Below are positions 2,576 through 40,607 of a stretch of 64,000 bases of DNA, one piece after another; position 1 is the first letter of the stretch, and each line of letters opens with the position of its first letter. The translations under genes and the position numbers were made by a program. The DNA lies in assembly GCA_031835245.2 (NCBI GenBank), contig JAVKOQ020000003.1, positions 248,001 to 312,000 on the forward strand, given 5' to 3'. A model generated the notes under the pieces. That model was not told where the DNA came from. It ran no database searches and saw only the letters and a list, made by a program, of their open reading frames with translations. The DNA comes from Balamuthia mandrillaris (Eukaryota).

Positions 2576-5500
2576 TTATTCTTCCACTTCGGATAATTCA
2601 TAGTGAGAATGCTCCGCGGATCGAGGAACGTGCTCGCTTTCTTCCTCTTCTGGCCCGTTGGTGGGCAGTTGGGTGTAAGAGGGCTCCACTTTGCGACAGG
2701 CACAGAAAGAGGGGAGAGGTAGGATGTACACAAGGCAGGAAATAAACGGAAGGAGAAGCCACAAGTACCACAATGACACGGAAACATTAGCTGCATCCGC
2801 TCGAATCCAAATGAGGAAGACCAGTCCGCATAAGGTTGCCGTGAGAGTAACTGTTGCATGGACAATTGTCCAGATTCGCCCAGAAGTGGCAGCACGTTGC
2901 CTGACTAGCACCCAAAGAGCAAGGAATTGTGCAACGCCTTCCACAATGACGCAGATAGAAGCAAAAGCAACAAAGACGGATGGCTGTATAGGGGCATCAG
3001 GTCGTCCCAGTACAGAAATGAAGAAGGTGACGCCTAACGTGAGCAACACGGAGGTTGAGCGTAGCCAAGCAGTGTGCTGGCGGTTCTCAGCGTCTTCATA
3101 CTTGATTGGAGGGTAGTGCCAGGTAAACAGCAGGAAGCCCAGCCCTCCCAACAAAAGAAAGAGAAAAGAGAAGAAGATAAGGGCGATGCTCCAAGAAGAT
3201 TCAGCTGGCGTCTGCCCAATGACGAAGGGGCTGAGGAAAATGGTCGCTGCAAGAATAGCGCGCTGGGTAAGTCGCCAGCCAAACTTGTCGCGGAGGTGCC
3301 TTGCAAGAAGCACTTGCAGAGCCAGAAGGTTGAGAAATAGCGCCACCAAGAACATGAAGAGGGCGAGGATAGTGAGATGAGCTGCTCCATAAGGCTCGCA
3401 GTAGGAGAGTAGTGAGGATACACTCCACTGAGCGCCTTTCAGAAGGGATACCAAGGCTGATGACGCAGTTATGTCGTCCGAAGCAAAGGCTTTCTGCAAG
3501 GAAGCAGTGATGACAATGCAACCCCATCCAAGTGGCACTGGAGAGCTAGCATACATCCACCAAGCAAAATATCCAGTAGCTGCAATAACGAAGAAAAATA
3601 CAATGACAAACGTGCTGTGGGTATTATCGGTCGGAGCAGAGGGCCAATGGGTGGTGTTGGAGGATATCAGCAGCTTGAATCCGTGTTGTTGATGGTAGTG
3701 GGAGGGGTCTTGGCATAAGAGAGAATGCTTGCCATCTGAGACTACGCGCAACCGCTCGTAATGCTCACATTTGTGTTCATTGTCTATTGAACAAGGCAAA
3801 CGGTCTTGCAACCAAGAAACATCGGTAATGCCCATTCTCACCCAAGCTTCATCACGGCAGTGTATACGTGGGTCGAGGCAGGTAGACTGATCAAAGCTGA
3901 GCGGACCGTGCGGTGTGATAGCACTATGTTGTGGATCGATAGACACTTGGGCATGTAGCAGCCGAAGAGAGGTGCGGGTTTGGGAGAGTAGCATTGCCTC
4001 CGAAGTGTTATGCACCGCCAAGATAGGTGGAGGGGATATGGAGGTGGTGTTCGATAGGTAAACACTGCTGAAGCCATCGTGGAGGTGTACCGTCAGAGGT
4101 AGACTAGTGTTGGCAAGCCATTCTAGCCAAGCTTGATTGGCTAGAATGGGCTTCTTGCTATGGTTAAAGGAAGTAGAAGAAATACCTCGCAAGGAAGTAG
4201 GGCCAAACACAACAGTACGATTGTAGGTTGGTAGGCTGCTGTTGTTGTGCGGCAATACCAGAGGGAAGAAGTGGATAGCGGAGGGATACTCAGCAGCATC
4301 AACGAAAGAAATGTAGGGAAGTCGCATCATACGAGACGATGCGATGCTGACTACCGAGCCATTACAGGAAGGGCCGTGGAAGCGCAGGGCTGTGGAGTTG
4401 TATTCCTGCCAGTGTCCAAAGTTCCACGAGGAGAAGGAGGAGGAGAAATTACTGGAACTTGAAGTAGCACCACCACAAGCAATCTGCACGGAGCTATCCT
4501 TATTACCACCAACAAAGAGGTTGGTGGAGTTGACTAAGCAAGAGCCTCCATGACTGAGCAGAACTTCCAGGTCATCCTCTACGGTCATGAGATTGCCATG
4601 AAGAAGAGTATGGGACCATGGTTCAGAACCAGAGTCCTTGATCTCAGCTGTAACGTTGGGGAACAGGAGCACCAGCCGGTAGAGTGCCCGTTGTTTGCCA
4701 AGGCCTGTTACCTCGGTCTGTGGAGTGCTAACGTTCAACTCGCCGCTGTGCCGAGAGTAGAAAGTACAGTTTGCCTGAACAGCTTGAGGATCTATGCCAA
4801 GCTGCTGGAGCTGCTCTCCAAGCCACCAAGACACCGGCTCCGTTTGAGCAGAGGCGGTAGAATTGACCAATGAGCCTACTTGACGCAGACAGCCGTTAAA
4901 ATATTGGATGTCGCTAAAGGTATAGTTGAGGAGGGTGTGGCCTCCAAGCCCCACTGCAACCACGCTGACATTAGCCTCTACCACACTGGGAGACACGATA
5001 GTCGTTGTATTGATGGCCAAGCTGTTGTTTAGCATGCGCTCCAAACGAAGGAAGGAAGGTGGGGTGGCAGGAGTGCTGACACGAAGGTCGGCATCAGCTG
5101 GAGTGCCTTTGACAGTGATATTGATTGGCTGTTGGGTGCTGAGGGAAAGGTGATCAATGGCAGAGGCCTGCACAAGCAAACCACCCAAAGTCACTCTTCC
5201 CATCTCTGGCAATTCCATTTTTTCTACCAGCATATTGTAGAGAATGGAATTGTCTGGACCATCCACATTTACAGCAAGAATAGCACCAGTGCCACGCAAA
5301 CTCCATACGTTAACATAGGCGGCGTGATCGAGAGGAGTGGGAAGGTTAACTTCCACCGTCCAGTTACGAGCAGGCTGCAGTGGAGGCTCCGATCGGCCTT
5401 GTCCATCTATTACTACCACTGCCTCTGGCGCAATGCCCACAATCTTGTAGGTGGTATAGGAGGCTGGTTCATACTTGTCCACTTGGCCAGGCACCGTAAC

Positions 5501-8500
5501 GTTGATGATGACTACTTGCTCTCTTACCAGAGAGAACAGGGTAGTTGTTGGTGTGTGCTTCCCCTGAGAGAAAAAGCCAGGGGCCGCAGCTAGAGATACC
5601 ACCCCATAGTCATTACTGGCTTGCTGTAGCTGTGATCGCCTCCGTACAAATGGCAAATCTTGCACCTTCAGTTGCTCTAACGTAAGTACAGATGAGGCAT
5701 AAAGCGGGTCAAGGGGTCCAATGATGCTGCCCTGAATGCTTGGTTGGGGTAATTGACTGTCAGTGTACCATACAGTCACATCATCAGAGGCTCGATCGTC
5801 TCCTAGTCGTGCTACCACAGCACGGCAGGGCATGACCAGCGCCAGACTGTCGTTACCAACTCCAAGATCAAAGAAAGCATGAGCATCCACCCCCCTGGCC
5901 AAGCTAGAAACATTCTGCCAGGTGACCACATCACCACCAGGGCCAAGGTTTACGTTCACTAAAGCAGAGTGAACTTGGCGGCCAACAAAGGTATCATCAG
6001 CCCATCCCGTCTCAATGGTGAGATTCATGAAGCCGGAGTAGACAAGCGGACAGGCTCGGCAGGGTTCATCTCCAGGATCAGCAGGGAAACCGACAGCTTG
6101 CATAAGGGTACACATCCAAGAAGACTGGTTGTAGGAGAGGGGAGCTATGCTTCCGTTCTTCAATTGAGAGGCTAGGCAGGACTGATCCAGGTAGTAGTGC
6201 TGCGGAGGGGCCTGTGGTCCCATGCCCGAGTTGAGGATCACCTTCACTGGCGTGGTAGTCACCTTGGATTGGCCGGGCTGAGGTTGGGCAAGGGCAATTG
6301 GGGCTACAATGTCTCGTAGGGGATGAGTGCTGCTCAGCGCAGATTGGACTTGACCAAGTGCCAGCTGGTTGATTGTTCCCATCAGTAGGATGGGGCTATT
6401 GCTGGACACGACGCGCACATTATTGATTGGCAGGGTGATGTTTTCAGAAGCGGTAAGGTTGGAGGGTAGGGTAAAGTTGAACAAATATTCCGTGCCGAGG
6501 GTACCACGGATGACGTTGAGCTCGGTGCCGTTTTGTCCAAATTGGATAGTGACACGCTCTATTTCATCGAAAAGAAGGTGGAAGTACTGTTTTTCGTTGA
6601 TGGTGTCGAACGCCAGCAAGGCGTTTTCTTGAATGTCGAAGCGCAGTGGGCGATTTTCAGAAGCGGCACGGATATGGATGGTGTCGTTCTGGCCACGGTT
6701 AGAACTGCCGTAGATCCACATAGTGCACTCCAGGGAGGAGATCTTGTTATTCTGTCCGATTTCTACCTCATGGTTGCTGCCATTTTGGAGGAAGATGCGG
6801 ACGTCAGACTTGCCATCGCACCCCGTGATCTGTTGGTAAATGCTGCCACCAGGCGCGCCAATAGAGTAGACGTGAATGGAGTCCTCTCGTACAGGCGCCA
6901 CGAGTGAAAAAGAGGAATGTGTATCAGCAGCACCGATGATGTGGTAGTTCCTGTTTTCCACGCTGGTGTGGCGGATCGTGTGCACGTCGTTAGGACTACC
7001 GTTCCACATGACGAGGGAATAAGGTGAGGCCGTTGCTTTCATGTGCAGCTGTTGCTGCGTGATAAGTGTGAAGTTGGCAGTGTCAATGCCTCCTCCGCCA
7101 ATAAGCTGGGTGTTGCCCTGGATGGCCGTCACCGAGGGGACTACGAAGAGGTCGTCACCAGTGCCAGCCAAAGCTCGTAGGGTGGTGCCAGGTGGGTTCT
7201 CTTGGATCAAATAAGTGGTGGGTTGCTCGCGGTTGCCAGCCACCCTCACCCACTGGTAAGAGGGAGGAAGGTAGAGCTGTAGTTGCTGCGTGTCCGTTGT
7301 GGCCTGCACCAAGTGAGTGGAAATGGTGTAGTGTGCAGCCTCCACGGAGATAGCCAGCGTGTCGCTCTCTCCTGTAACATTGATGGGTCGGCGGTCGTAG
7401 AGTTTCAACGCAGAGTCCAGTGTGACGTTGTTGTTGGCCAAAGATTCCAGAAGGGAAGGAGCTGGCACTCCCGATAAGGCATAGGTAACGCCCGCTGCAG
7501 GGCTGGTTAAGTGCAAAAAGCCACAACGCGTGATGCTCACCCCAGGAACAGACTCTGGAGCGACCAAAGTGGGAGAGACCTTGATGGTGGTGGAATCACG
7601 GAATTCGGAGACTATCAACCTCAACCTGGCGTTGTCATAGGGTGGCAGGTTTACTTGTTGGTGTACCACGTTGCCCACTACCCAGGTGAAAGGAGCAGTG
7701 CCAGGATTGCCCTTGTAAGTAATGGCAGAGGCGGTCAGCTTGCCTCTCGACATATGTGCAAAGCCCGAGTTGAAGCTCACGCCACTTGGTGCATAGTCCA
7801 CACTTAGTCCACCGGCAGGCGTCTCGAACAGATAAAACAGAACACCATCTTGTTCAGCAAGGGAGAGAGGAGCTATGGCTCTTCCTTTTTGATGTCGGCG
7901 TGAGCTTATGTACGTTTCTTCTGCCATCGATGAGGAGGATGCTGGTAGCATAAGCGTTGCTGGGGCGTGGGACCGGAAGCCCACCAGGTCCAAATTGACC
8001 TTGGCGTAGGGATCAGAGATGGCAGGGTAGGTAGCCGGCTGGTTTATGATGGGCCATTCGTGGCCCCAGCTCAGCTTGACAATGTCCCAACAGATCTCAT
8101 CAAAGATAAGCTCAATGCAAGCGCGAATGGCCAGGCCAAAGCGAGCACCTAGCGTAACACGTTTGTCTAGGGCTCCCCACCAGCCGTTCAATTTGACGAG
8201 GTAAGCAATCTCGTTGAAGGTGACCCATCCATTGCCGTCGATATCCACGAAGCGTACCTGGCCCGTTAGAGTGAGCGTCAGGAAGGCTTGACCCTCAAAG
8301 ATGAAGATGCCAATGGACACACTGCCAGTGACGGAGACACGAGCTTGAAGGGGCCAACGTTCTGAACCATCGTTATTGCGGGCAGGCAGGGCCAGGGCGT
8401 GAACCACCATGGCAGGGGAACCTGATTTGAAGGCATCCGCCAGGCCACTGTACATGAGGGCCACTTCACCGAAACTGACACGTAAGCTAGCGGATACGGC

Positions 8501-11500
8501 CAGGCCCAGCTCCACTTCTGGCCAAGGCCAGATTGGGATGGACCAGGATAATCCCATTCCAAACTCCAGGTCTGGCAAGGTTACACCAGCCAAAGGAAAG
8601 TCGATGCCCATCATTGCTGATACCAGGTTCTTGGCCACGTTGTCGAACATGTAGAGACGAACACCAAACTTTCCACTAGTGGTAATGCTCGTATAAAAGC
8701 TAGATACCTCTTTTTTGGCAGCTGCGTCCTTGCCGTGGAACTGTAAGCCTGGAGGAGGCAGCGGTCCCGTAAACTTGGGTTCCACTGTCTCTTTCGTGAA
8801 GTCAAGATAAAAGTCTTGTACAGCCTGTACCACGTTGCACTGGTCCTTGGAGATAACCTTGGTTAGGTCCACTATGAGTTCCAACTTACGATAGACGTCC
8901 ACAAAGGTCTCCAGCATCTCTAGCACGCCTTGGTAGTGACACTCGTCGCCGACCTGGCAGAAGAAGAAGAGCACTTGAATTAAGTTGATGTCATTGCCAA
9001 ACACATGAGACAGGCCGGGAATAGGTCGCAAGAGGATACCGTCAGGACCCAAGACTGGATCCAGCGGGTCCAGCAGCTTGCCGATGGTCTGCTCCGTAGT
9101 CACTCTAACTACATTGATCAGCAGACGGCCAACACAAAAATGGATGTCGGAAATGTAAAACTGAGGGGGGGTCAGGTTGTCGTGTAGCTTCCATTTCCAA
9201 CTCAGACCGAGAGAGGCCTGCCAGTGAGGAAGGGCGTCCAGGGCATCTGGTGTGTGGGCTATCCGTTCCGCCAGCTCTCCGCCCAACCCTATCTCTGCTG
9301 CACCGAACAGCCTTACGTCCATCCAAAAATCGGGATTGAACTGGCTATCGACGGCAAAGCGTCCCTCCAGCTTTGTAGCGTTGCTGCCGGTGGTTACCAG
9401 GCGAAGATCCAGGCCGACATAGCCAATATCGCCAGAAAGGCGACAACCATCCGCCACGCTCATGCTCAACGCTCCCGAGAAAACAGGGTCCTCTGGGAAT
9501 CGCAAGCGTACGCCGTGGGTGTAGTTGAAAACCAATTCCACCGTAAAATTCCAACTTAGTATCAATTCCGCTTCGCACAGGAGTTCCAGCGATGCAAAGC
9601 CATGATCCCCCAGGCCAAAGTCCATGTTTTGGATCGGCTTGCGGACCGTGCTACCAAACGGAAGCAGCCACTTGTATTCGTCTGCATGCACATCAGGTAC
9701 TGCAGGGCAGGGTCCTCGCAACACTCCACTTAGTTCCTGGCAAAGGACTTTGGTGAAAGCCTCCAGCACAAGGCTCTCAATGTAGGTTGGGTCAAAACTG
9801 AAATCGTACTTGGTCAACATGTCGTTGGTCATGTTCGTGATAGCCACCACAAAGTTTTTCGTCAATTCAGGTCCAACGAGGTCTCCGATGGCAGCAGTGA
9901 TGAGATCCTCCACGAGCTTGTCCACCAAGGGTAATCCCAGCTTGACCAAGATACCCCCTCGCCCAAGGAGGCGGGAGAGGAAGGCCTGTATTTCGCTCTC
10001 CCAATCCTGCATGAATATCAGCTCTGAAAAGTAATCGAACAACGTATTCTGAAGCAGGGCTCGTTCCAACATCTCTAAGAAGCCTCCTTCGCAGCCCTGT
10101 TGGATGATATCAGGAAATTGCCGACCAGTAATGAAGTCGTAGATGGAAGAGATATTGATCAATAGTCCGCATTTGTCGTGGGACCCGCTGCCCAGGGCGA
10201 TGAAAGCATCCAGGCCGGCTGTACCTGTCAGGCTTAGTGCAAGTGACCCAGAGGGGGACAGCCTGGCCGTCAAATTTGCTGGATAGCCCAGCCAGCCGTG
10301 TGCTTCCGAGAATGTGACAGAAAGAGGGCCGAATGATGCTTTGATATTGCCATCCATAGCGAACCCCATAGCCAGCGACATGCGGGTTGCTTCGTGATCA
10401 AGAGCCAGAGAGACTCCTCCATCATCTTCAAATCGGGCCAGCAGCCGCAATCGCATGTCAAACCCAGTCTGCAGGTTCATGTCGCTCTCAGCTCCGATGC
10501 CAAAAGGAAAACCAGGGCCAAACAGGGCGGACGTATCAAACCGCAGTCGATCCTCAAAGCTACGGTTGAAGAGAGAGACCTGAAGATCCACGGCCAAAGT
10601 GTGAGCATCCACAAGGGCATTAGCGCAGACGTCCTGTCTATAAACGTCCTTCATCACGGCACAGAGCAGAGCCAGGGTGAAGGGTTCTTTTTTGTTGCAT
10701 ACACTGGACTGAACATCCTTCAGCAGGGAGAGCAAACCGGAATCCAGCAGTCCAGCGAACGTGTGTTGGCTCATTGGAAGGAACTGACGGGCTAGCTCGT
10801 TGGTGGTAAGGATGTCAGACAAGTCTTGGGCAAGAGTCAGCCAGCCACAAACAGAGTTGTTCGTATTCAAAAGGCTTTGGAAGGCAGTGATGCTTTGTTG
10901 AGCACCACTGAAGGCCACCTGCCAACTGGCCAATTGTTGAGTAAAATCGGTCAGGTCGGAGAGGGCGGCTAACTTCCAAGTTCCTATGTTGTGCAGCAGT
11001 ACATCGGGAGGCGGAATGTCCATCTTAACAAAGTCCAGAAGCAGATTCTGCAGGCTAGTTGAGCTATTGACGTTGAAGGCTGCGTTGAAATAGTCAAAGA
11101 ACTTGCTACGGGGAGCGATGAGGTGGCCCATGAGCTGGTAGGGAGCTGAGCCCTTGATAGCCACCTGCAGTTGGCTGCGAGCGGAAATCCTACTGCTGTT
11201 CATGGCGAGCACGGCATAGCGTCCCGTGGCTTGCGGTAGGGAGGCTTCCAGGTCGAGGCTCAAACCCATAGAAGTGTTCTTTGAGAGCAGAAGAGCACGT
11301 GCGGGCACATTGGTAGCGTTCTGGAGAGCGGGAACATGGCCCAACGGGTTCATGATGCTTAGCGACAATGGCACCAGCCACCGTACTTCCTCTTGTCCTT
11401 CTTGTGTGGCTGGCAAAGAAACATACCTAAGATCAAAGCGAACTTGAGGAATGCTTTGCAGCAAGGGATCTCCCGGCATTTCACTGACGGTAAACATGGG

Positions 11501-14500
11501 CCGCAATGTTTCGTTAATCTGTGGCAAAACTTCCTGCAAGAGAGCATCTCGCAAGAGCTTTCCAGGAGAGAGGACGATAGAGTGGGTGACGGTCATTGTG
11601 ATGGGCTGTGCAGAAGGAGAGCGCAACTGGGCGCCAATCATCAAAGAGAAGGTATTGCCGGGCGTTGACGGCACCATCGTAGCGTTTATGGTGAAGGGGC
11701 CAGTGCTACTAAAGTTGGTCATGACGGTGATGTTGCCACGGCCGCCCAATGGAGGTACATCTAGCACGGTAACCATGGTGGCTGAAAGGGAAGCCTTAAC
11801 CTCTCCGCCCAGTCGCCCGCCGCTAACGTCCATAGAAATCACATTATCCATGGCATTAAAACGGGAGGTGATCGCAAAGTCAGTCTCGTGTCGGTGGTCA
11901 GCTGCAATACCCTGTTGAATGGCCACAAATTGTTGTGGGTAGACTTGGCGGAGGGCAGGCGGTACCAGCTGTGGTACATCGTCTCGTTGAATGGTAGTAT
12001 AGACAGGGGGACGATAGGCAAAGATGTTGTCGTAGCCGCTGAATACTCCATGTAACAACCAAGATAAGTCCTCCCAGGTGGCGAATGCCGGTACTGTGCC
12101 TGCGGTCCAACGTCCAATAAAGCTAACATTCCCAACGGGTTCAGTTGTAACCTCTAAGTCCCACACCGCTCCGGCAACGGATGGCACCAGAGCAACGGTA
12201 CCACAGGCAGCACCACCCCGATCGGCCACCACAGCAGCCAGAAAAGGATCCAAATGGCACCCTTGAAGGGCCACGTTGAGGCTGTTAGACAGTTGGTCAA
12301 GGCTCTGTGTAAGCAGAGAGTCGGCCTTGCATATGGTCATGGTCCCTTTGTTGATGGTCACGTTCATAGAGAGGGGACCCTGAGGTCCGGACGGGCAGAA
12401 TGGTTGGGACACCACAAGCTGATGTCTCTCTGCAGCTGTGAGAGCGTGTAACCATGGCAACTTGGCCTTCAGCAAGTCCTCGAAGCCGTGCACCTTGCTC
12501 AGTGGTTCGGCCAATGGGGAGAGGGGGACGTTCAAAGCCGAACCAAAGGCCTGCGGTAGAGAACCAAGAATGCCCTCCTTAAGAACAGTAAGGGCAGAGA
12601 GGGAAGAAACCATGGAGCCGCCATCTGCTGCGTTCACACTGATTTGGGGTGGCAATTCTCTCTTAGTCAGGTCTGAGGCTTGGATTTGGACCTTCAACAT
12701 TCCTCCTAAATCAGTAGCCACGTCCATTGTCAGTGTGAGAGAAGAGGAAGAGGGCAAATTGAGCGTGAGGTCAGCGGAGGCTTGTGCCATAGTTCCAGAA
12801 AGCATATTGAAGGTGAAGGGTATGGTCCAGTCAACGTGTTTGGCCCCGCCGTGAACAGAGTACTCGGTAAGGTCCCCGCTGCCTGAAGGGGTGACGGTGA
12901 AGCGGAGGCGCGTGTAAATATTCATGGGGAGTGACAATCGTCGCGTGTCTGTCATAAATTTCCAGGTGGACCTCTCGGTGGCGAGGGTAGCCGTCACTTG
13001 CCTATGAACCAGGATATCCACTCTCAACGCAGAATTGAGGGGGGCAACGGAGGCGAACAGGATGAGGCTTGGGTCGCTGGCGGCCTCCGCCCGGATCAAA
13101 TCACACAGGCTATTGGCCAGTTTCCATCCACTCATTGGTTGAGATAAGGTGGAGAGGGCATTAGCGAGCACAGTGATCACCGCAGCAAAGCTGTTGTTCT
13201 GGCCTGCCATGATACCGAAGTTATAAGACAATGGATACAGCACGTCGCTAGCCCATCTTTGAACCTCTATGTTATGGGCAGCAGCATTAAGGCCTGCCAC
13301 GTAGCTGGAAGGCTGATAAGGCACGTCGATGGCAAGTTCTCCAGTCTCGGTAAGCCCAATAAGCGTTCCAGGAATGATGCCATGCAACGCAGAGGAGACA
13401 CAAGCTTGAATACGTGCAAGTCGTGTGGTATGGTCATAGACAATGTTCGCGCAGGTGAACATGGGGTTCCCAACAGCGGGCCATTGGGCTTGCATGGAAA
13501 CCACCGCCGAAAACACGAGTGGGGTGGAAAGGATGACCTTATCTCCAGAGATAGAGACAGAAGTCGTAAGGTATCCAGAGACTTGGGAGGCCTGTAATAC
13601 AGAGAGAGAGCTGTCTATAGCTGGCGCTTGGAAGCGAGGATCGATGGCGGGATAACGTTGTCTAACTTGGCGAGCCAGCTCTTGGATGGCTGAGTTAGCA
13701 TTTTGTACAGCTAGATCATCGCCGCCGACCGTTAATGAGCCTTTAATATTTGGAGTCTGGATGACTAGGCTCGTTGTGTTGCCGTCTCGGGAGGTGATGG
13801 GACTAAGACCACGCCTCTCTCCGAACCAGCGCAAGAAATCCTGAAGGGATGGTGCCTGGGTTTGTGAGTGATAGGTGGTAAGGAAAGGTTGGAGGCCGGT
13901 TGAGTCTGTGGGGAAGAGGTTCTTGACCGCCTGATTCACCACAGCGACGGGAGTTGTTAACAAGGAGCGGATCTGTTCAAAAAGCTTGCCGATGAAGGCC
14001 AGTTCTCCTGCGGGAAGAGAGTCTAGCGGGAGAACTGGGATAAGAATACCGGCATGGACGGATGAAAACAGGTTGTAGGGGAGAACGCTGTACATCTGAA
14101 CGTTTCCCTTAGAGCTTCCTTCTCTTTCTCCTCCTTTGGCCACTTGTGCTGATGTCTTTGCTGGAAGACGGCCTGGGGCTGGGGGAGGAGAGGAAGAGAC
14201 GGGTAGGTCGCCTCCAGCAATGATGCCAGAGGTAAGAACTGGGATGGTCCTTAACAAATTGGCCGTAGCTGTGTCATCAGAGAAAAGAGCTAAGGTTGGC
14301 CAACCGCTGACAGCATCGGCAGCGGCAGTGGTAGTCAGAGGAGCTATGGCAGTAAGATAGATGCCCAGAAAGACAGATGAGTTGTCACAGCGAAATAGGG
14401 CGTGGGTGTGTGCTCCCATTCCCCTGGCTGTTATGCGCTCCTCCGTAGCAAAGATATCGAGGGTAAGGTAGCTGGACAACGTGTCCGGGAGGAGGAACAA

Positions 14501-15600
14501 GGAAGAACAGAGCGACTGTTGGCTTGCTCCCTGCAATACTGAGGCTGTTACCAGCCGCTCCAGAGAGGTAGAGAGGGAAGTAGGGCATTCAGCAGGACCG
14601 TTACAAGAGGTCCTTGATTGCAACAAAGCGCCTTGTTGGGAGGGACCCTCCCACAAAAGGTCGCCACCCGTTATTCTGATGGAAGTAGAAGGCAGTGAGA
14701 CAGAATCCAAGAAAGCTCCGCGGATGGAAGAAGAGCGTAGAGAGGAAGGAGTGGCGGAGAATTGGGAGAGACGAAGATTTGGGCGAGCGGCAAGGGAAAG
14801 AGTGGCCATTGTGAGGTTCCGCAAAGACGGTTTCACACTAGGTGTGGGTCTATAGAGAAAGGCAGCAGGCATACCGTCCAGCAGGTCTCCATCCACGATG
14901 AGAAGGGAAGCGGCAGAGGGATTGCTGCTGCTGAGATCCGTTTGCAAATCACCTCTCCAAACGAGGGGAAAGCTCGACATTGCCGAAACTGGGAAACTCC
15001 CTCCTACCTTGCTGAGGGTCCCCAATACAATGCTCGAAAATGGAGTGGTAGTGCCAGAGCTTGCTGGAAGCGTTCCATTCACCGTCAAACGAAAGGTAAC
15101 ACTGATGTTCAAGCTTAGAACTTGCTGTTGAACATCCTCGACATGGACGGTAACCGTCCTTCTCAGCTTTCCACCGCTGCCAGACAAGGTGCCATCCGCC
15201 AGACGGTTTGGTTGCAAAGCGTCGTTTGCAATGTCCACCCAACCCGAGTCGTAGGAAAAGGACCGGCCGCTGTTGGAGACACAGTTACTTTGAACCCATG
15301 AAAAGTCGGCTAAAGCGGTTCCCGTGAAGCCGTCTATCCAAGGTACTCTTGCTGTTTGCACCGAAAACAAAAGAAAAAAAAACAAGAAAAGAGAAAGCCG
15401 GTGATAAGAAAAAGATCTAGTAGTGGTGTACGCAAAAATAGAACCAATCGAAGAGGACAAGAAACGACACCTGTGAGGGAGTTAAGGCCTTGGCAGAGAG
15501 GAGGTAATGGGGCAGCCGTAACGCAGCATGCGCAGGCCGCCAACAACAACAATGCCGAAAGTAACGGCCGCGGTTGCAGGGATAAGGGAGCGCCTCTCAT
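2576..15600 (-). CDS. Giant (~4300 aa) surface protein: signal peptide, very large ectodomain with RTX-like repeats and an EF-hand-like loop, C-terminal multi-pass membrane domain
   Basis: A 12.8-kb uninterrupted ORF (2576-15460). A signal-peptide exon MRGAPLSLQPRPLLSALLLLAACACCVTAA starts at 15600 and joins by a probable phase-1 intron ~15353-15470. It has DIDGNGWVTFNE, motifs GTGDDLF, GGGGIDT and GVGNDSL, and about 8-9 hydrophobic segments in the last ~330 aa. Confidence 0.85.
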
Positions 15601-29764: not shown

Positions 29765-30033
29765 TGTTAAAAAGGGCAAATAACATGAACAAACAGGGCC
29801 AAAACGTATTATTCAAAGAGGGAACAAAGGAACAAAGGGTGTCAAAAGAGAAAGGTGTGGTGTGAATGAAACAAAACTAACTAACTAAAAGAAAGAAAGA
29901 AGGAAGCAATGGAATAAATGGAAGAAGTCTAGTGATGTGGCAGTAGGCAATTGGTCCATGTCAGGGATGTTGACAGTAAGAAAAGAAAGGAAAGGGGGCA
30001 ACAGAGTTAATATGTTGAGAGTAATTCTCAACA
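29765..30033 (+). mobile_element. Solo copy of the ~269-bp LTR-like repeat
   Basis: TGTTAAAAAGG...ATTCTCAACA, homologous to 35899-36167, with GAGA on both sides (putative 4-bp TSD). Confidence 0.8.
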
Positions 30034-31594: not shown

Positions 31595-32130
31595 ACTTTT
31601 GTTTTTCTTCAATCTGCACACATGTGCACACCTCCAACAAATCATTTTCTCTTCCTATCCTTTTCTTTTTCTTCAATCTGCACACGCATGTGCACTTCCT
31701 TAAATCATTTTTTCTCCCCCATTTTTTCGTTTTTCTTCAATCTGCACATGCTTGCACACTTCCTATAAATCTTTTTTTACCTCATCACTTCAGTTTGTGC
31801 ACTTGTTATAAATTATTTTCTCTTCCCCATCTTCAATCTGCGCACATGTGTGCACTTCTAATAAATCATTTTCTCTTCCCCATCTTTTTGTTTTTCTTCA
31901 ATCTGTGCACGTGTGCGCACTTCTAACAAATCATTATTTCTCCATCTTTTTGTTTTTCTTCCATCTGCACATGCGTGCACACTTCCAACAAATCATTATC
32001 TCTTTCCCAGCTTTTTGTTATTCTTTGATTTGTGCACATGTGCGCACTTCCTCTAAGTGATTGTCTTTCCCCATCTTTTTGTTTTTCTTCTTTCTTCCAA
32101 CAAATCATTTTCTTTCAAGTGTGCACACTT
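31595..32130. repeat. Degenerate minisatellite, ~60-bp unit, ~8-9 copies
   Basis: Recurrent TTTTTCTTCAATC-TG(CG/CA/TG)n-CAC(T/C)TC-(C/T)AACAAATCATT. Confidence 0.85.
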
Positions 32131-32677
32131 TTAACAAACGTTGATAATACAAAGCCAACACCTCTTTGACAACCACAAGACTTCATGGGATGAAAGCCAG
32201 ACTAGTCGTTGGTTCTAATCTTTCTTTCAACAGCTCTATTGCCCTTTCCTCTTTTCTTTCACAGGTATCATGACTACTCATTCATGGCACTCAAGCGCCT
32301 GTGCTTACATTTTCCTTTCTCTCCTTTCCTCCTTTTCCTTTCTCTTGGTGTACTTTCAAGCAAAGACAGAGATTCCTTCCTGTTGTCTTTTTTAGAATAA
32401 GTCACACTTCACAAACACTTTAACTGCAAGTCAAGAATGAGAGAGTACTTAGAAAAGAAATGTGTTGATGGAAGCAAAAAAGAAGGATACATTTAATGCT
32501 GCTTCCTGCAATGCAAAAAAAGATTCAGAAGTAACATAGAGAACTGAAGGAAGAGTTTAAGGTTAGCAACTTGGTACTCATTCACTCCAAGATGATGTCA
32601 ATTGGTGAGTCTAAGAAACTTTGATATGGTTAAAAAGGAGGACATCATAAGATTATTAAAATCTGTTCACAAACAAA

Positions 32678-32787
32678 GTAAGAGTAGTAAGAGTACACTA
32701 TATATGTACAATGCTTACTTTTTATGTATTGATTGGTGTTGCACTCAGAGTAAATAAACTTCTTATTACTACTATTACTACTACTTA
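32678..32787 (+). mobile_element. 5'-truncated LINE 3' end with (TAC)n tail
   Basis: Matches the 3' UTR of the LINE at ~40510-40607 (GTAAGAGTACACTATATAT..CAATGCTTACTTTTTATGTA..AATAAA..TTATTACTACT). Confidence 0.8.
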
Positions 32788-33552: not shown

Positions 33553-33652
33553 AGTAGTAGTAGTAATAAGAAGTTTATTTGCTCTAGGAGCAACACCACA
33601 CTATATAAAAAGTAAGCATTGTACATACATAGTGTACTCTTACTGCTCTTAC
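33553..33652 (-). mobile_element. 5'-truncated LINE 3' end with (TAC)n tail
   Basis: Reverse complement of the same 3' UTR and tail. Confidence 0.8.
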
Positions 33653-34161
33653 TCCCTCATCCTCAATGCCTTCCCAATTGTTATGTCCCCTAAACAGTAA
33701 TCGTTGGTGGAAGCCTGCTTTGCAACCCATGCAAAAAGAGGCAAAGATCCCCGAATGTTTTGTCAAAGGGGACAAGTTAAATCAGTTTTTGGAGGAAGCG
33801 TTCAAGTTGGCAGTGGAAAAGTATGGGCACCTGAATACTACCACAAGTTTCCCCCTTCCCAAAGGGCTAACCAAAAGGAGCAGGATGACAGAGGTGCAGA
33901 GGATCAGCATAACTTGGTAGTAGATTTGCCCTGCTGAAAGGAAGGGACCAGTGTTGTGCCTGAGAGGAAGATTGATTTGGACTCAGTCAGTGTGGATGAC
34001 ACTAAGGTGTGAACCAACTGTTAAGTGGCACTGCTGTTTGATTGTATTAGCAGTGTTTCTCATGAGTGTAGTAAGCTCTTTGAGGCAGGTGTACTTTCAC
34101 TTGCAGTGATTGTATGATTCAGGGACCTGATTGAATCTCTCAACTAGGAGATTAATAATCT

Positions 34162-36167
34162 TGTTGAGAATTACTCTCAACATATTAGTTCTGTTGCCTC
34201 TTTCCTTTCCTTTCCTTTCTGTTGACATCTGCAACGTGGACCAATCACCTGCTGTCACATCGCTAGGCTTCTTCCTTTTATTTCGTTGCTTCCTTCTCTC
34301 TTTCTTTTAGTTAGTTAGTTTTGTTTAGTTCACACCACACCTTTCTCTCCTGACACTCTTTGTTCCCTTGTTCCCTCTTTGAATAATACGTTTTGGCCCT
34401 GTCCATTCGTGTTATTCATCCTTTCTAACATTTTCACTCCCTCTTTTGTTAGAGTGAAGCATAGAGGTTGTGGTCCAGCGAGTCCTCAACTAGTTCATTA
34501 ATAGCACGGCAGTACTCATAATAGCTGTCAACATCATCACACTGCAAATAAGAAAGAGTAGCAGAGGGACCAGGAGGGGAGCCAAAGTGGATAGCAATAG
34601 CAGGAGGGTCATCATCGTTATCATCATCATGCACATTGTTGGGAGGGTCGTCATTGTTGTAACCAGTAGTAAGGGCGAATAGGCCAGATGAGTTCTTGTT
34701 GGTCTTGTTGGGGCAAGAAGATGCAAGGTGACCTTGTTGCTTGCATTTATAGCATGTGTGTTGCTCAGCAGTAGACGTGGAAGAAGTTGGTTTAGAAGGA
34801 GGAGGTGAGGTAGTAAAAGGCAATGGAGGGGCGCGTGTGCAAGTTGGATGGCCTGCAAATTAGCTTCCATAGCTATCGCAGTAGTAACAGCTTCATTGAA
34901 GTCATTGGGCAGGTTGGTAGCAAAAGCAGATGCTAAACATAGTTGAAGGTCCTTATTAAGTGCATTACACAGTGTAGAGGCCAGAAAGTCCGGTGGTGGT
35001 GGCAAAATAATCTGATCACACATCTCCAAGATTTTCTTGCTGATAGAACAGACAGACTCCGTAGGGCCAGCTCATAGGCAACAGAGCTTTTTGTAGGTGA
35101 CAAAGTTTGAGCTTTGTGGAACAAAATGGTTAAAGAAGATTGCTTTAACCGAGGTCCATGGAGTTCTGGGGAGATCGAGGTGGGAGAGAGCCCAGGCTTT
35201 GGCAGAAGGATTGACAATGCTCGTGATATGGGCTTTGTACCAACATTCTGGCAGCTGGTCGTCCTGCAAATGGAACTCGAGGGCACAGATAAAGGTCAAT
35301 GGGTTGGAAATCTTCGGATTGTCCAGGTCAAACTTGGGAAGATCATGGAGGAAAGATCGGTTCTTGACAGAAGGGGCTGAAGAAGCAGATGAAGAAGCAG
35401 TGTTGCGAGGCAGTTGACGTGGGGCAAAGGCAGAGGCCAACACTAACAAGGAAGCTGAGAAAGAGGTGGACTTGGGCTTCATGGGTGTTGAAAAGATCAG
35501 GTCATCCTCCGCACAATCTTTTTGGAAAAGAGTCTGTTGCAATGGCGGATTAGATGTCACAGAGAAGGGAACAACAGAGGAAGTAGGGGCAGGAGGACAG
35601 GAAAAAAGAGGGAACTTCCTGTTCTCTAGGTCATCCATTGCTTGTGAAAGTCATTCGATTTTGTTGCCAAAGAAGACTGCTTTCTTCTGGTGCTCTTCTT
35701 TTTCTTCCGGGGTTGATGCCATGGCGGCTTTTTCAAGCTCCTCCGTGGCATGAATGTGGGTGTTCTCAAGGGCGGCTCAAAGGCGTTCCAAATGCTCCTT
35801 GAAGGTGGTTGGGGAAATCGTCTCAGATTTCTTGTTCTTGGCGTCCATCACATCTGAGGGGAAATCGCATGAATAATGGTTCTGGTTGTCAAAAAAAATG
35901 TTAAAAAGGACGAATAACATGAACGGACAGGGCCAAAACGTATTATTCAAAGAGAGAACAAGGGAACAAAGAGTGTCAGGAGAGAAAGGTGTGGTGTGAA
36001 CTAAACAAAACTAACTAACTAAAAGAAAGAAAGAAGAAAGCAATGGAATAAAAGGAAGAAGCCTAGCGATGTGACAGCAGGCGATTGGTCCACGTTGTAG
36101 ATGTTGACAGAAAGGAAAGGAAAGGAAAGGGGCAACAGAACTAATATGTTGAGAGTAATTCTCAACA
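34162..36167 (-). mobile_element. gag-only retroelement bounded by inverted ~269-bp LTR-like repeats, 4-bp TSD ATCT
   Basis: 34162-34430 is the reverse complement of 35899-36167. ATCT occurs at 34158-34161 and 36168-36171. The interior holds a disrupted gag. Confidence 0.85.
34449..35848 (-). pseudogene. Disrupted gag with CCHC zinc knuckle
   Basis: CYKCKQQGHLASSC (CX2CX4HX4C), capsid-like AKAWALSHL..PWTSVKAIFFNHF, in-frame TGA stops and frameshifts. Confidence 0.8.
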
Positions 36168-37041
36168 ATCTTATGGTGGAGGAAAAAGGAAGTGCAAAAG
36201 GTACCAAAGGCGGTCCTGCTCCGGGTGCCCATTATCAACAGTCATACATGGAGGTGGTTGGATCTGCTCCTCAGTGTGACCAGATTACTGTGAAAAGGAA
36301 TTTCCCTCCAATGGTAACTACATAAGCGCACTAAGCTTGGAATACTGAGGAAGAAATGGCAAAAGCTTAGTGCACTTATGTAGTTACCATTGAAGCACAC
36401 TAAGCTTGGAATACTGAGGAAGAAATGGCAAAAGAACCAAAGGACAACTCAAAACATTCCTGAAACAGAGTATGACTAATTAATATTCACTTTACTTCTC
36501 CCTGTATATGGTACTGTATATAACTTCAATCAATATTAGAGGAGGTATAAAACATAAAAAAGATAAACTTGTTCAGATGATGACCAAACAAGAATTTGAC
36601 ATCCTTTGTTTCATAAGAATGTAACTGTATAAATTTACCTTGAGCTGAAGGTCTTCCTTGGAAAAGACAAAGGGAACCATAGCATTTCCAGCTAAAGCAA
36701 GCTCATGACAAACTCCATGCTTGCAAGCAAACAATCCAGAAAATCTCAACCAGCACTGCTCAAAACCAATCCATCCATTCATTTGTCTGTCCTCTACATT
36801 CTTGGGATAAAGTCACTAATATATCCTAAATCACTCTAGTAGTCTCATAACTTGTAATAATCTACTAATGCACCTTGCTTACAAGTATGCTTCCTCTGGT
36901 TCTTCCTCTTCCTTTCCCTCTCCTTCCTTTCCTTTCTCATCTTCAGCATAATTTTTACCAACACACTGAGTGGTCTCTGAGGAGCACCAGGTACTGTGGA
37001 TGACCTCAAGGTCGCCTTGGCTATGATTGAGAAGAGAATAC

Positions 37042-39075
37042 TGTTGGCAACTGCCAACATAACCAACTCTTTCTTTGTTTCTTTCTTTGTTCCTTTCTTC
37101 TTTTCTGTCAACAATCTCACGTTAGCTATCATTGATCTTTTATGTCGACACATAGCCATTCTGAAGATCTTTCTCCTGCCTTGCCTGGAACTTTCCTGAG
37201 CCTAGAACTTAAGAACAAAGAAACCAAGAAGTCACTCCCCAACCCCGAGCCTCTTTCCTTCCTTGGTTGCCTTCTCAACTATAAATACTTTTCCCACAAC
37301 CAAGAAGAGGCAAACAAACAAACAAAGAAACAATACACTCACAAACACACTTGTTCTCTTCTTCTCATTAAATATGTTTGGCTCCCATCTTTCTCTTTGT
37401 TCCTGTCTTGGTTCTATGCTCAGGTTCTAACATTTTTTTTGACAAGTCAAACCATTTGATGATGGAAGCTTTGCAACAGACACAACAGCAACAGCTGCAA
37501 AGCATGGCAACAGGAAACACAAATCAACTGCCACTGCCTATTTTTACTGGTAGTTTGTTATCCATAGATTCTCAGCAAACAACCACACAACAAATCTTGG
37601 CACTTCTGCAGCAGCAACAACAGCAACTGCAGCAGCAACAAATACAACTGCAATCTCTCCTTCAACAACATTGTCCACCTTGATGGTGCTTCCTCAGTCA
37701 TTCCGAGTCCGACCAGCTTCTGTTTCTTCATCCCCATCTCCCTCTCACATGTTCATGCACAACATGTTCCATGGTGCTCCTTTTGGCATCAAGACAGTTC
37801 CCATGTGTATGCAGCATCTGATGACCGTCATTCTCAATAAACTACACAATTGTTCTGCCCACTACATCAGTGATTGTCTAGTGCATACCAAGTCATCTTC
37901 TTCTCTTGATGATCATATCCACTTTGTGCTAGTATTTCTGCTCTCAATGATGCATGCCTTCATCTTCAAACTGAGAAATGTCATTTTGGCTTTACATGCT
38001 TGTTGGATTCATTGTTTCCTTCACTGGCTTCACCCCTGATTGGGACAAATTGTCTGCGCTTTGCTCCTTTCCTACTCTTACTACTGGAAAGCAATTGCAA
38101 TCCTTCCTCGGTTTTGCCAACTTTCTACGGCCTTTTATCCCTTGTTTTGCATGCCTTACAGCTCCTCTTGACGCTCTTCGATATGTCCATGATCTCTGAC
38201 CCTTCTGAACTACTGATTGTCAAGCTTCTTTGGAATTGATGCCTCCCAGAATGGTGTTGGTGCTGTTCTCTACCAAGAGACCCCAGACTAGCAACATCGC
38301 TACATTGCCTTTGCTAATTATGAACTCAATGATGCCCAGTGCAACTATCCAGCTACAAAACATGAGCTCCTTGCCGTTGTCTTTGCTCTTCTGCAATTTT
38401 GGTGCTGGCTCTATGGTCACCACTTTACCCTTTTCACCGATCACAAGGCTCTCACTTATCTCTTCACTTCCAAGCACTCCAATTATATGCTTAACAACTG
38501 GGCCTACATCATCCTTGAGTCTTCGACATTGTCCATGATCCTGGAATCAAAATGATCCTTGAAGACTGCCTCTCTTGACTTTATCTGAAGAATTTTTGGG
38601 AAGAGATGGTTCGGCTGGTCTAACCAGGCTGATAATCCCTCAATCTGCAAAGACTCTGACTCCTAAGACCTCCACATCTTCGTCTTCCGCCTTGTTTGCA
38701 CCTGGGTCATCTTCCCTCTCATCTTTTTTTCAGATTGAGCTTGATCAGTTTCCTCCTTCTTCTCTGTCAAAAGATCTCTCCACCTTTATCAAGATGTTCC
38801 ATGATAAGACTGCCCCCTTGTTGGAACAATAACAAGAACTTCTTCAAAAGTTTCACTCTGAAACTCATGAAGGTGCCTCCCATATCTTCAGTCGAATTTG
38901 GAATGAAGGATACTTCTGGCCTTCTCTTCACTCTGACTGTCACTTTGTCATGCGCTCTTGTAATGCTTGCTGATGCTTCAATGTGGCTAAACATGGCTTT
39001 CATCCTTTGAAGACCATTGCTACTACTTATCCATTTGACCACATTGCTATCAACCTCTTCGGCTCTCTTCCTTGG
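37042..39075 (+). mobile_element. Decayed Gypsy-type LTR retrotransposon (5' repeat 37042-37432; RT-RNaseH-integrase order), truncated by a LINE
   Basis: RT: GAPFGIKTVP, KQLQSFLGFANFLRPFIP. RNase H: DASQNGVGAVLYQ, NYPATKHELLAVVFAL, FTLFTDHKAL. Integrase: HSETHEG...YFWPSL..C..C, PFDHIAINLFG. Confidence 0.88.
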
Positions 39076-40607
39076 AGGTGACTCCTTCCAATAATTGTCA
39101 ATAGTGCAGGGGTTGTCAAAGTTAACATCCTTGAACAAGCAGGTGGTGGAAGCCCATGCTCTGTGGCTGAGAGAAGGAAAGAATGATCAAAAGACCAGAG
39201 CAGATTTTGTGGAACTCAGGAAAAGGTTTTTTGAAGTTGTGAAGAGCCAACAAACAGGACTGGATGAAGTGGAAAAGACAAGAGAACATCAAGGAAATGC
39301 AGAAATGGATTGGCAACATGTGGAGAATAGTGGCAAAGCATAGAGCAGAGCCCAAAGCTGTTATTAAGCACTGTGGTAGCATAGCAGCCTTCAAGGAACA
39401 TTGGGCAAAGCTGGGAAGGAAGGATCCTTCCATCAGGAGCTCACATCTAGAGGAAGCAGGTCTAGAAGGACCATCTTGGTCTGGCAGCAACTGGCTTAAG
39501 GAGAGCTTTAATCATGCATGGAGGAAAAGATTGAAGGTGGGCAAAGCAGCTGGAGGGATAATATCAATGGGGAAATGATGAAGTATGGAGGTAAACATGT
39601 GCAAGATGCAACTTTTGCCACTGATCAAGGCCATTGAGAACCAAGGCGTGTTTTCCAAGGAGTGGAAACAGGGGGTAGTTATCCCCTTGCATAAGGCAAG
39701 AGATCCCCAGAACCCAGCAAACTATAGAGGAATTACTCTCCTATAAGCAGTAATTCGCCATGCTGAGAGGCAAGATGGGCACTTTGAGCTTCTGGAAGAG
39801 ATTAGCCAAGCAAGGAAAGAAGAAGGTGAGAAGAGAGAAGGTGAGAGAAGTGAAGAGATGAGTGACATTGAAAAGAAAGCCAAGAGGATGAGGACCTTAA
39901 CTCGAGTAGCCAAGGCAGAGTATGCAGTTGAAGGAGAAAGAGGAACAAGAGCATGGCTTTGGCATAACTTCTTGACAAATGGAAGATGTTTGGTTGGACA
40001 ACAACAGAGCTTAGTGATTACCAACCCAAGGAAAGAACGATTGATGAATGCTATTTGCTGTGGTGGACTGCTCATTGGAAAAAAGTGGGGAGCCATTCAA
40101 CAGTCTGAAGAGGACAGTATGTGCCCTGCATACAATGCTGAGGAAGAAACAGCAGAACACTTCCTATTAAGGTGTCCAGATCTTTGGGAAGATTGTTTCA
40201 AAATCTGGAATGTGGACAATGGTGATGAAGAACTAGTTAGGAAGCTAATTATAGAAGACTGTACAACAAAGCTCCTGTCTAATGGAAAGAAATGCAACAG
40301 AGCTCAAGAGAGAGAACAATGCAAGCAAAGTTGTAAACGAGTTTGGAGATTATGGACAGCAAGAGCAAGTTGGAAGCATGGACGTTCTTCTGTATTTTAT
40401 CAATCTTTGGAAGTAATGTAATAGGAAGGAAAAGAGAAGAAAAGGGAAAGAAAAGAATAAATGGATGATACAAAGTTAGTCTGAAAGCTCATGAGGACGA
40501 GAGAGTAAGAAAAGTAAGAGTACACTATATATATACAATGCTTACTTTTTATGTATAGGTTGGTGTTGCTCTCAGAGCAAATAAAATTCTTATTACTACT
40601 ATTACTA
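39076..40607 (+). mobile_element. Decayed non-LTR (LINE) element: RT N-terminal fragment, C-terminal zinc finger, (TAC)n tail
   Basis: EWKQGVVIPLHKARDPQNPANYRGITLL, CPAYNAEEETAEHFLLRCP, and AATAAA followed by TATTACTACTATTACTA. The 5' boundary is approximate. Confidence 0.85.

Follow-up and report, generated by a model that had tools for sequence, protein, structure and literature searches.

Gypsy elements of Balamuthia mandrillaris and their relatives may prime reverse transcription with their own polyadenylated RNA 3' end

Introduction

In the Skipper elements of dictyostelids and Protostelium a pyrimidine tract replaces the tRNA site, and the primer is unknown (Spaller et al., 2016; PMC5006619). 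The accessible part of that report mentions that no LTR region complementary to the tract was found, judges simple poly(A) priming unlikely owing to a characteristic C, and names a chromodomain behind the integrase as the defining trait of chromoviruses. How reverse transcription starts in Skipper-type elements was thus left open in 2016. Other elements prime with the 5' end of their transcript, as given for Tf1 and Tj1 in the available text of one source (PMC4600332) and predicted for Tcn1 in that of another (PMC6317226). The portions of PMC3601003, PMC5633606 and PMC11485995 that were available contain nothing on priming by a 3' end, and our literature search, which lay outside subscription journals and missed part of the spellings of poly(A), returned no proposal of 3'-end or poly(A) priming.

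Here we describe two elements in a 64-kb stretch of Balamuthia mandrillaris DNA (the window), together with a set of relatives, and compare them with these systems.

Results

The window contains two decayed Ty3/gypsy LTR retrotransposons, element A (36167-34162, minus strand) and element B (37042 to about 39078, plus strand). An exon nearby shares 100% identity with a protein of Balamuthia mandrillaris, which identifies this amoeba as the host. A first-pass annotation had pointed out that both carry TAACA-T8-GACAA-N4-AACCATT with equal spacing, and a pattern search of both strands of the window confirmed this, with two matches of identical spacing at 37428-37456 (plus) and from 35903 (minus), against about 2e-9 expected in 128 kb from base composition. 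The predicted primer-binding sites, T8 followed by an anchor read as GACAA, lie at 37433-37445 (plus) in B and at 35886-35898 (minus) in A; neither has the TGG that starts a tRNA primer-binding site, as the same annotation had stated. A tRNA gene scan of the window found none, and Rfam gave no match at the T-run sites, its single match lying far below the cut-off on an unrelated hairpin. The length of the T-run differs between copies, being T9 for B in five public X3 contigs, and the inverted LTR of A carries extra T's. At position 35886 most X3 contigs (18 contigs, depth 981/1004) have C on the plus strand and thus read T8-GACAG, so that GACAA does not hold as the family sequence of A.

The 5' LTR of B (TGTTG...TAACA, 37042-37432, 391 bp) is the only LTR of this copy, and 17 X3 contigs pass into unrelated flanks exactly behind 37432. 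Its U3 terminal hairpin at 37042-37059, noticed earlier, indeed folds with seven pairs. Further on follow a TATA-like box, the putative promoter (37280-37287), and ATTAAA, a predicted poly(A) signal (37367-37372). Behind the T-run site, AACCATT and an ATG at 37459 lead into a glutamine-rich N-terminal remnant, probably gag, that has no Pfam match (37450-37680). Domain and tblastn matches agree with the claim that B carries reverse transcriptase (RT), RNase H and integrase in gypsy order: the frameshifted C-terminal half of RT (37764-38181; RVT_1, E 4.5e-5, below the Pfam cut-off, and tblastn), a broken RNase H (38238-38584; RT_RNaseH, E 2.9e-20), and a truncated integrase with its H2C2 N-terminus and the start of the core (38704-39078; Integrase_H2C2, E 4.5e-7). 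The copy is nevertheless wrecked. A large deletion has removed the protease together with most of gag and the N-terminal half of RT; reading frames are broken, the YxDD position reads YISD, the integrase ends near 39078 and the 3' end is lost. The integrase is cut by the remnant of a high-depth repeat (39079-40420), which we take to resemble a non-LTR RT by motif; its part at 39747-40418 has no Pfam match. In the public contigs the LTR depth of B is far above its internal depth, and families A and B are both covered far deeper than single-copy DNA, depth being no copy number.

Element A starts with a 5' LTR of 269 bp (35899-36167, minus) that opens with a hairpin of eight pairs. Its predicted RNA 3' end (35926-35947, minus) consists of AATAAT at 35947-35942 and CTGTC at 35930-35926, the latter ending 22 nt behind the start of the signal. 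A broken gag without pol (34700-35850, minus) includes a CCHC knuckle at about 34707-34757 (zf-CCHC, E 1.2e-5) and gives weak matches to gag proteins from the same clade (E 7.7e-11 at best). It is followed by a polypurine tract (34435-34451, minus) and by a second, inverted LTR (34162-34434, plus). The element is flanked by a 4-bp duplication, ATCT, at 34158-34161 and 36168-36171, and empty insertion sites are present in other copies of the host repeat in public contigs. That the LTR ends at TAACA is established, without recourse to the T-run, by a solo LTR of the same family (29765-30033, minus) that has a 4-bp target duplication of its own; the T-run thus starts at the first base behind the LTR. 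As expected for Ty3/gypsy, A and the solo LTR have TG...CA LTRs and 4-bp duplications, and A a polypurine tract.

The inverted repeats of A, previously regarded as a trait of the element, appear to be peculiar to the window copy. In other copies the purine tract abuts the start of the LTR (X1 contigs show the joints 36167 to 34440 and 36160 to 34434, and X9 has matching loose ends), and family A therefore has ordinary direct LTRs. The inverted arrangement is probably one aberrant product of reverse transcription, and its junction is confirmed by none of the contig pieces listed. Three extra T's stand between the inverted 3' LTR and the purine tract, yet the 4-bp duplication is clean; possibly, plus-strand strong-stop DNA changed templates, and integration then used two U3 ends. 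Contigs of other copies of A pass from the purine tract to the CCHC region with no pol in between, and the family appears to be gag-only. The two LTRs of A differ at 14 positions, all of them transitions, and CpG in the two window elements is 0.43 and 0.24 compared with 0.66 in a host gene.

The LTRs of A and B had been described as dissimilar outside the shared motifs. This holds only in part, since their global alignment scores 79 against 45 +/- 9 (maximum 71) in 300 shuffles and their U5-side ends align; sequence comparison supports a shared lineage of the two elements, as had been proposed.

Several other repeats and frames occur in the window. The palindrome TGTCGACA or CpG-decay forms of it are found at 29968, 30957, 34220, 36102, 37106 and 37143, and thus occur in the LTRs of families A and B as well as in one other repeat, possibly as a site for a host factor. 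A 12-nt word common to both LTRs near their start (region 37102-37113) resembles a decayed form of this palindrome; as a partner site for the anchor it was rejected, there being no poly(A) signal. The repeat that hosts A contains a long near-perfect hairpin at 36303-36398 near the insertion and is the part with the highest coverage in the RNA runs X14 and X15. Three repeat copies of about 110 bp, in both orientations and ending in (TAC)n, lie at 32677-32779, 33553-33665 and 40492-40606, and a tandem array of units of about 64 bp with a TGCACA-type palindrome at 31597-32102. A minus-strand frame that stays open for 4301 codons (2576-15481) has no Pfam match at E 0.01.

The best protein matches of B are gypsy polyproteins with a chromodomain, about 45% identical to it across 400 aligned positions. 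PF00385 is found in its best-scoring relatives; the integrase of B itself is cut off. An alignment of 30 of these matches led to 80 metagenome loci (the best 80 of 419) and five loci from a viral collection. Automatic calling of LTR ends by terminal inverted repeats was noisy, with the T-site ranked top in fewer than half of the loci, and boundaries were therefore curated by hand. This was done in 42 of the 85 loci, mostly with the T-run as guide; the other 43 were too short, duplicates, of unclear ends, or distant viral matches. The curated relatives are diverse (median pairwise amino-acid identity 38%, with one of 630 pairs above 80%). In a tree without an outgroup, and with six loci left out for low coverage, named proteins of Rhizopus and Absidia nest among the relatives (support 96 with L081); the place of B is weak (support 69 in one tree and no resolution in another, likewise without an outgroup). 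Named Skipper, DGLT-A or Tf1 proteins are absent among the matches listed.

A CA followed by 0-2 nt and then T6-9 stands at the LTR end in 38 of the 42 curated relatives, which is not an unbiased rate, as the ends were chosen mostly with the T-run. Of four relatives whose ends were set independently, T6-7 is seen in three and GT4 in one; their anchors measure 3, 7, 2 and 7 nt. The T8 of A and B directly follows CA, and a spacer is lacking in 34 of 40 elements. A TGG near the LTR end was seen in none of 44 elements (the 42 curated relatives and both window copies). Five loci (L021, L025, L033, L063 and L066) have a G before a shortened T-run, or in L021 no T-run, and four of them keep an anchor of 4-7 nt at the predicted site. 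The bases after the T-run show no consensus across 40 elements, which makes GACAA a local sequence; T8-GACAA-N4-AACCATT, proposed as a conserved signal of the lineage, is not supported by the relatives.

The terminal hairpin fared better as a lineage feature. A perfect hairpin of at least five pairs from the first LTR base is present in 18 of 42 relatives, compared with 1.3 in shuffled and 3.4 in swapped sequences, and the same test at the opposite LTR end gave one of 42. A hairpin or inverted repeat at the LTR start was noted in L001, L003, L005, L008, L011, L019, L022, L027, L034, L038, L045, L047, L052, L063, A and B, with many compensatory changes; in many cases the final A of the purine tract can lengthen it.

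A different regularity emerges when the anchor is compared with the LTR of the same element. Complementarity to the anchor in the last 100 nt of the LTR averages 4.6 nt for an element's own anchor and 3.2 nt for those of other elements (reached in 0 of 2000 swaps), and in a first survey of positions the complementary site ended about 20-30 nt behind the poly(A) signal. In eukaryotic mRNAs, cleavage takes place about 10-30 nt downstream of the hexamer, frequently with an A as the next base. An AATAAA or ATTAAA located 35-150 nt upstream of the LTR end is present in 26 of 41 elements, and in 21 of these an anchor match of at least 4 nt ends 17-32 nt behind the start of the hexamer, the interval of 17-32 nt and the list of variant hexamers having been set after a first look at the match positions. 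Swapped primer sites gave a mean of 2.5 matches of 26 and a maximum of 9 in 3000 draws, and the intervals just before and after gave 2 of 26 each. Allowing variant hexamers, 29 of 35 elements match, with 26 different 4-nt anchors among the 29. Misses thus amount to 5 of 26 with the standard hexamers and 6 of 35 with variants, besides six elements without a hexamer. Three previously unused loci with clear ends, kept as a hold-out, have anchors of 5, 6 and 6 nt, each then followed by A; two hold-out loci with unclear ends do not show such a match.

The next LTR base behind the complementary site is A in 20 of the 21 matches. T-run and anchor together measure 10-15 nt, most often 12 (10 of 21), and their lengths are anticorrelated (rho -0.57). 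Only 0-4 A's are templated after the matched site, compared with T5-9 in the T-run, and A6 occurs anywhere in the LTR in only 4 of 40 elements. The predicted primer duplex of about 12 bp has a median of -10.5 kcal/mol. Additional pairing with R upstream of the site is enriched (-8.0 versus -5.5 in swaps, 0/200); pairing with U5 (-7.3 versus -7.5) and a U5-leader stem are not.

A and B themselves follow this pattern less well than most relatives do. In A, CTGTC is the exact complement of the majority anchor GACAG, giving five matching bases at signal +22, but the next base is C and not A; a second match, GCTGTC then A (36078-36072), is without a poly(A) signal. B fits partly, with two candidate partner sites at 37385-37407 (plus): CCATC at +23, the expected distance, aligns with the CTGTC of A but now pairs at only two bases, and TGTC at +41 matches at four and is followed by T. 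The depletion of CpG and the transitions-only differences between the LTRs of A make decay a plausible cause of this poor fit.

Discussion

On this comparison of sequences, the lineage conserves not the sequence of the bases behind the T-run but their ability to pair with the poly(A) site predicted in the same element. The first-pass annotation had suggested that these elements prime without a tRNA, by an oligo-A RNA or by themselves, and had raised the element's own transcript ends as a possible partner of the motif; the T-run and the match of the anchor to the cleavage site in 21 of 26 relatives lend support to both ideas. Because the anchor complement sits at the expected cleavage site, the most likely primer is the 3' end of the element itself with its poly(A) tail. 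We propose, with a probability of roughly two in three (0.68), that the T-run and anchor are bound by the polyadenylated 3' end of the element's own RNA, which would prime minus-strand DNA without a tRNA.

In the proposed mechanism, the RNA would be cut at the anchor-complement site and tailed, after which the last 4-7 templated bases and 6-9 A's would pair with the anchor and the U-run, with a looser helix beyond the duplex of about 12 bp. Surplus A's might be removed by trimming or by RNase H, or might loop out. RT would then extend the 3'-OH across U5-R, so that minus-strand DNA would grow from the RNA's own 3' end, and strand transfer could take place by folding back onto the 3' R next to it. 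During plus-strand synthesis the primer would be copied, so that T-run and anchor would be rewritten in every cycle and the anchor would stay matched to the cleavage site. The gag-only element A would borrow Pol in trans. Three raw RNA runs, of which 3-5% was read, cover the LTRs with a few reads; ends or tails did not pile up in them, and they are too thin to place either.

The same primer sequence might instead act in trans, as a short R-poly(A) RNA from a 5' or solo LTR that is packaged like a private tRNA, or as a second genome copy. Every LTR has a promoter and a poly(A) signal, the LTR depth of B far exceeds the internal depth, a short tailed RNA needs no circularization, and all covariation results fit equally well; sequence cannot tell cis from trans, and this reading, which we regard as rather improbable, overlaps with part of the 0.68 given to the element's own 3' end. 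Somewhat less probable again is that R at the 5' end is the partner of the anchor, an interaction that would hide the 5' poly(A) site or shape the leader, while another A-rich RNA such as host mRNA tails serves as primer. R is present at both RNA ends, the pairing reaches beyond the anchor, and RNA structure is known to occlude the 5' poly(A) site in retroviruses. However, this does not account for a match that lies directly against the T-run, stops at an A and adds up with the T-run to about 12 nt, and a helix of 4-7 bp alone is weak.

Self-priming by the transcript 5' end would suit a chromoviral lineage, being described for Tf1 and Tj1 and predicted for Tcn1 in the accessible parts of the respective sources (PMC4600332; PMC6317226), and the duplex would be of similar length. 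The complementary site lies behind the poly(A) signal, though, and in B some 100 nt downstream of the TATA-like box, and the LTR has no A-run beside it; the A's 3' of the anchor complement can only stem from polyadenylation, which argues against this route and makes it very unlikely. Least probable of all is a host tRNA, tRNA half or other small RNA, the default primer of Ty3/gypsy elements: besides the missing TGG and the lack of Rfam matches at T-run sites, each of the diverse anchors matches its own LTR, and this covariation largely refutes such a primer.

Priming by the element's own 3' end could apply well beyond the window. Whether a large chromovirus lineage, in amoebae, early-diverging fungi and other microbial eukaryotes, uses its cleaved, polyadenylated 3' end as a 12-nt primer, with minus-strand DNA as a covalent extension of the genome RNA and the first-strand transfer as an intramolecular fold-back, seems to us evenly balanced. 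The pyrimidine tract has already been published; the covariation of anchor and cleavage site and the priming model it implies we did not find in print. The covariation names the primer and predicts the exact RNA cleavage site for each family. If the model is true, 3'-end or poly(A) priming would join tRNA priming and Tf1-type 5' priming, retrotransposition would be tied to the control of tail length, and it would be explained why finders of tRNA-based primer-binding sites miss these elements.

When compared with known systems, the inverted terminal repeats of the window copy of A recall DIRS-1. In contrast to DIRS-1, A has TG...CA LTRs, a 4-bp target duplication, a polypurine tract and no tyrosine recombinase match, and other copies have direct LTRs; A is thus not a DIRS-1 element. 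Like Tf1 and Tj1, as far as the available texts describe them, the elements would use no tRNA but their own RNA, here as a predicted primer, in a short duplex right behind the LTR. The Tf1 primer, however, is a 5' transcript end, fully templated and released by cleavage, whereas here it is a predicted 3' end consisting mostly of untemplated poly(A); the primer site is not fully complementary to templated sequence as it would be in Tf1/sushi elements. As in Skipper, A, B and most of their relatives have a polypyrimidine tract instead of a TGG primer-binding site. Compared with the accessible part of the Skipper report, the tract reaches beyond Amoebozoa, the clade including named proteins of Rhizopus and Absidia, and a complement to the tract, which was not found in the published Skipper elements, emerges here if the tail is taken as the source of the A's.
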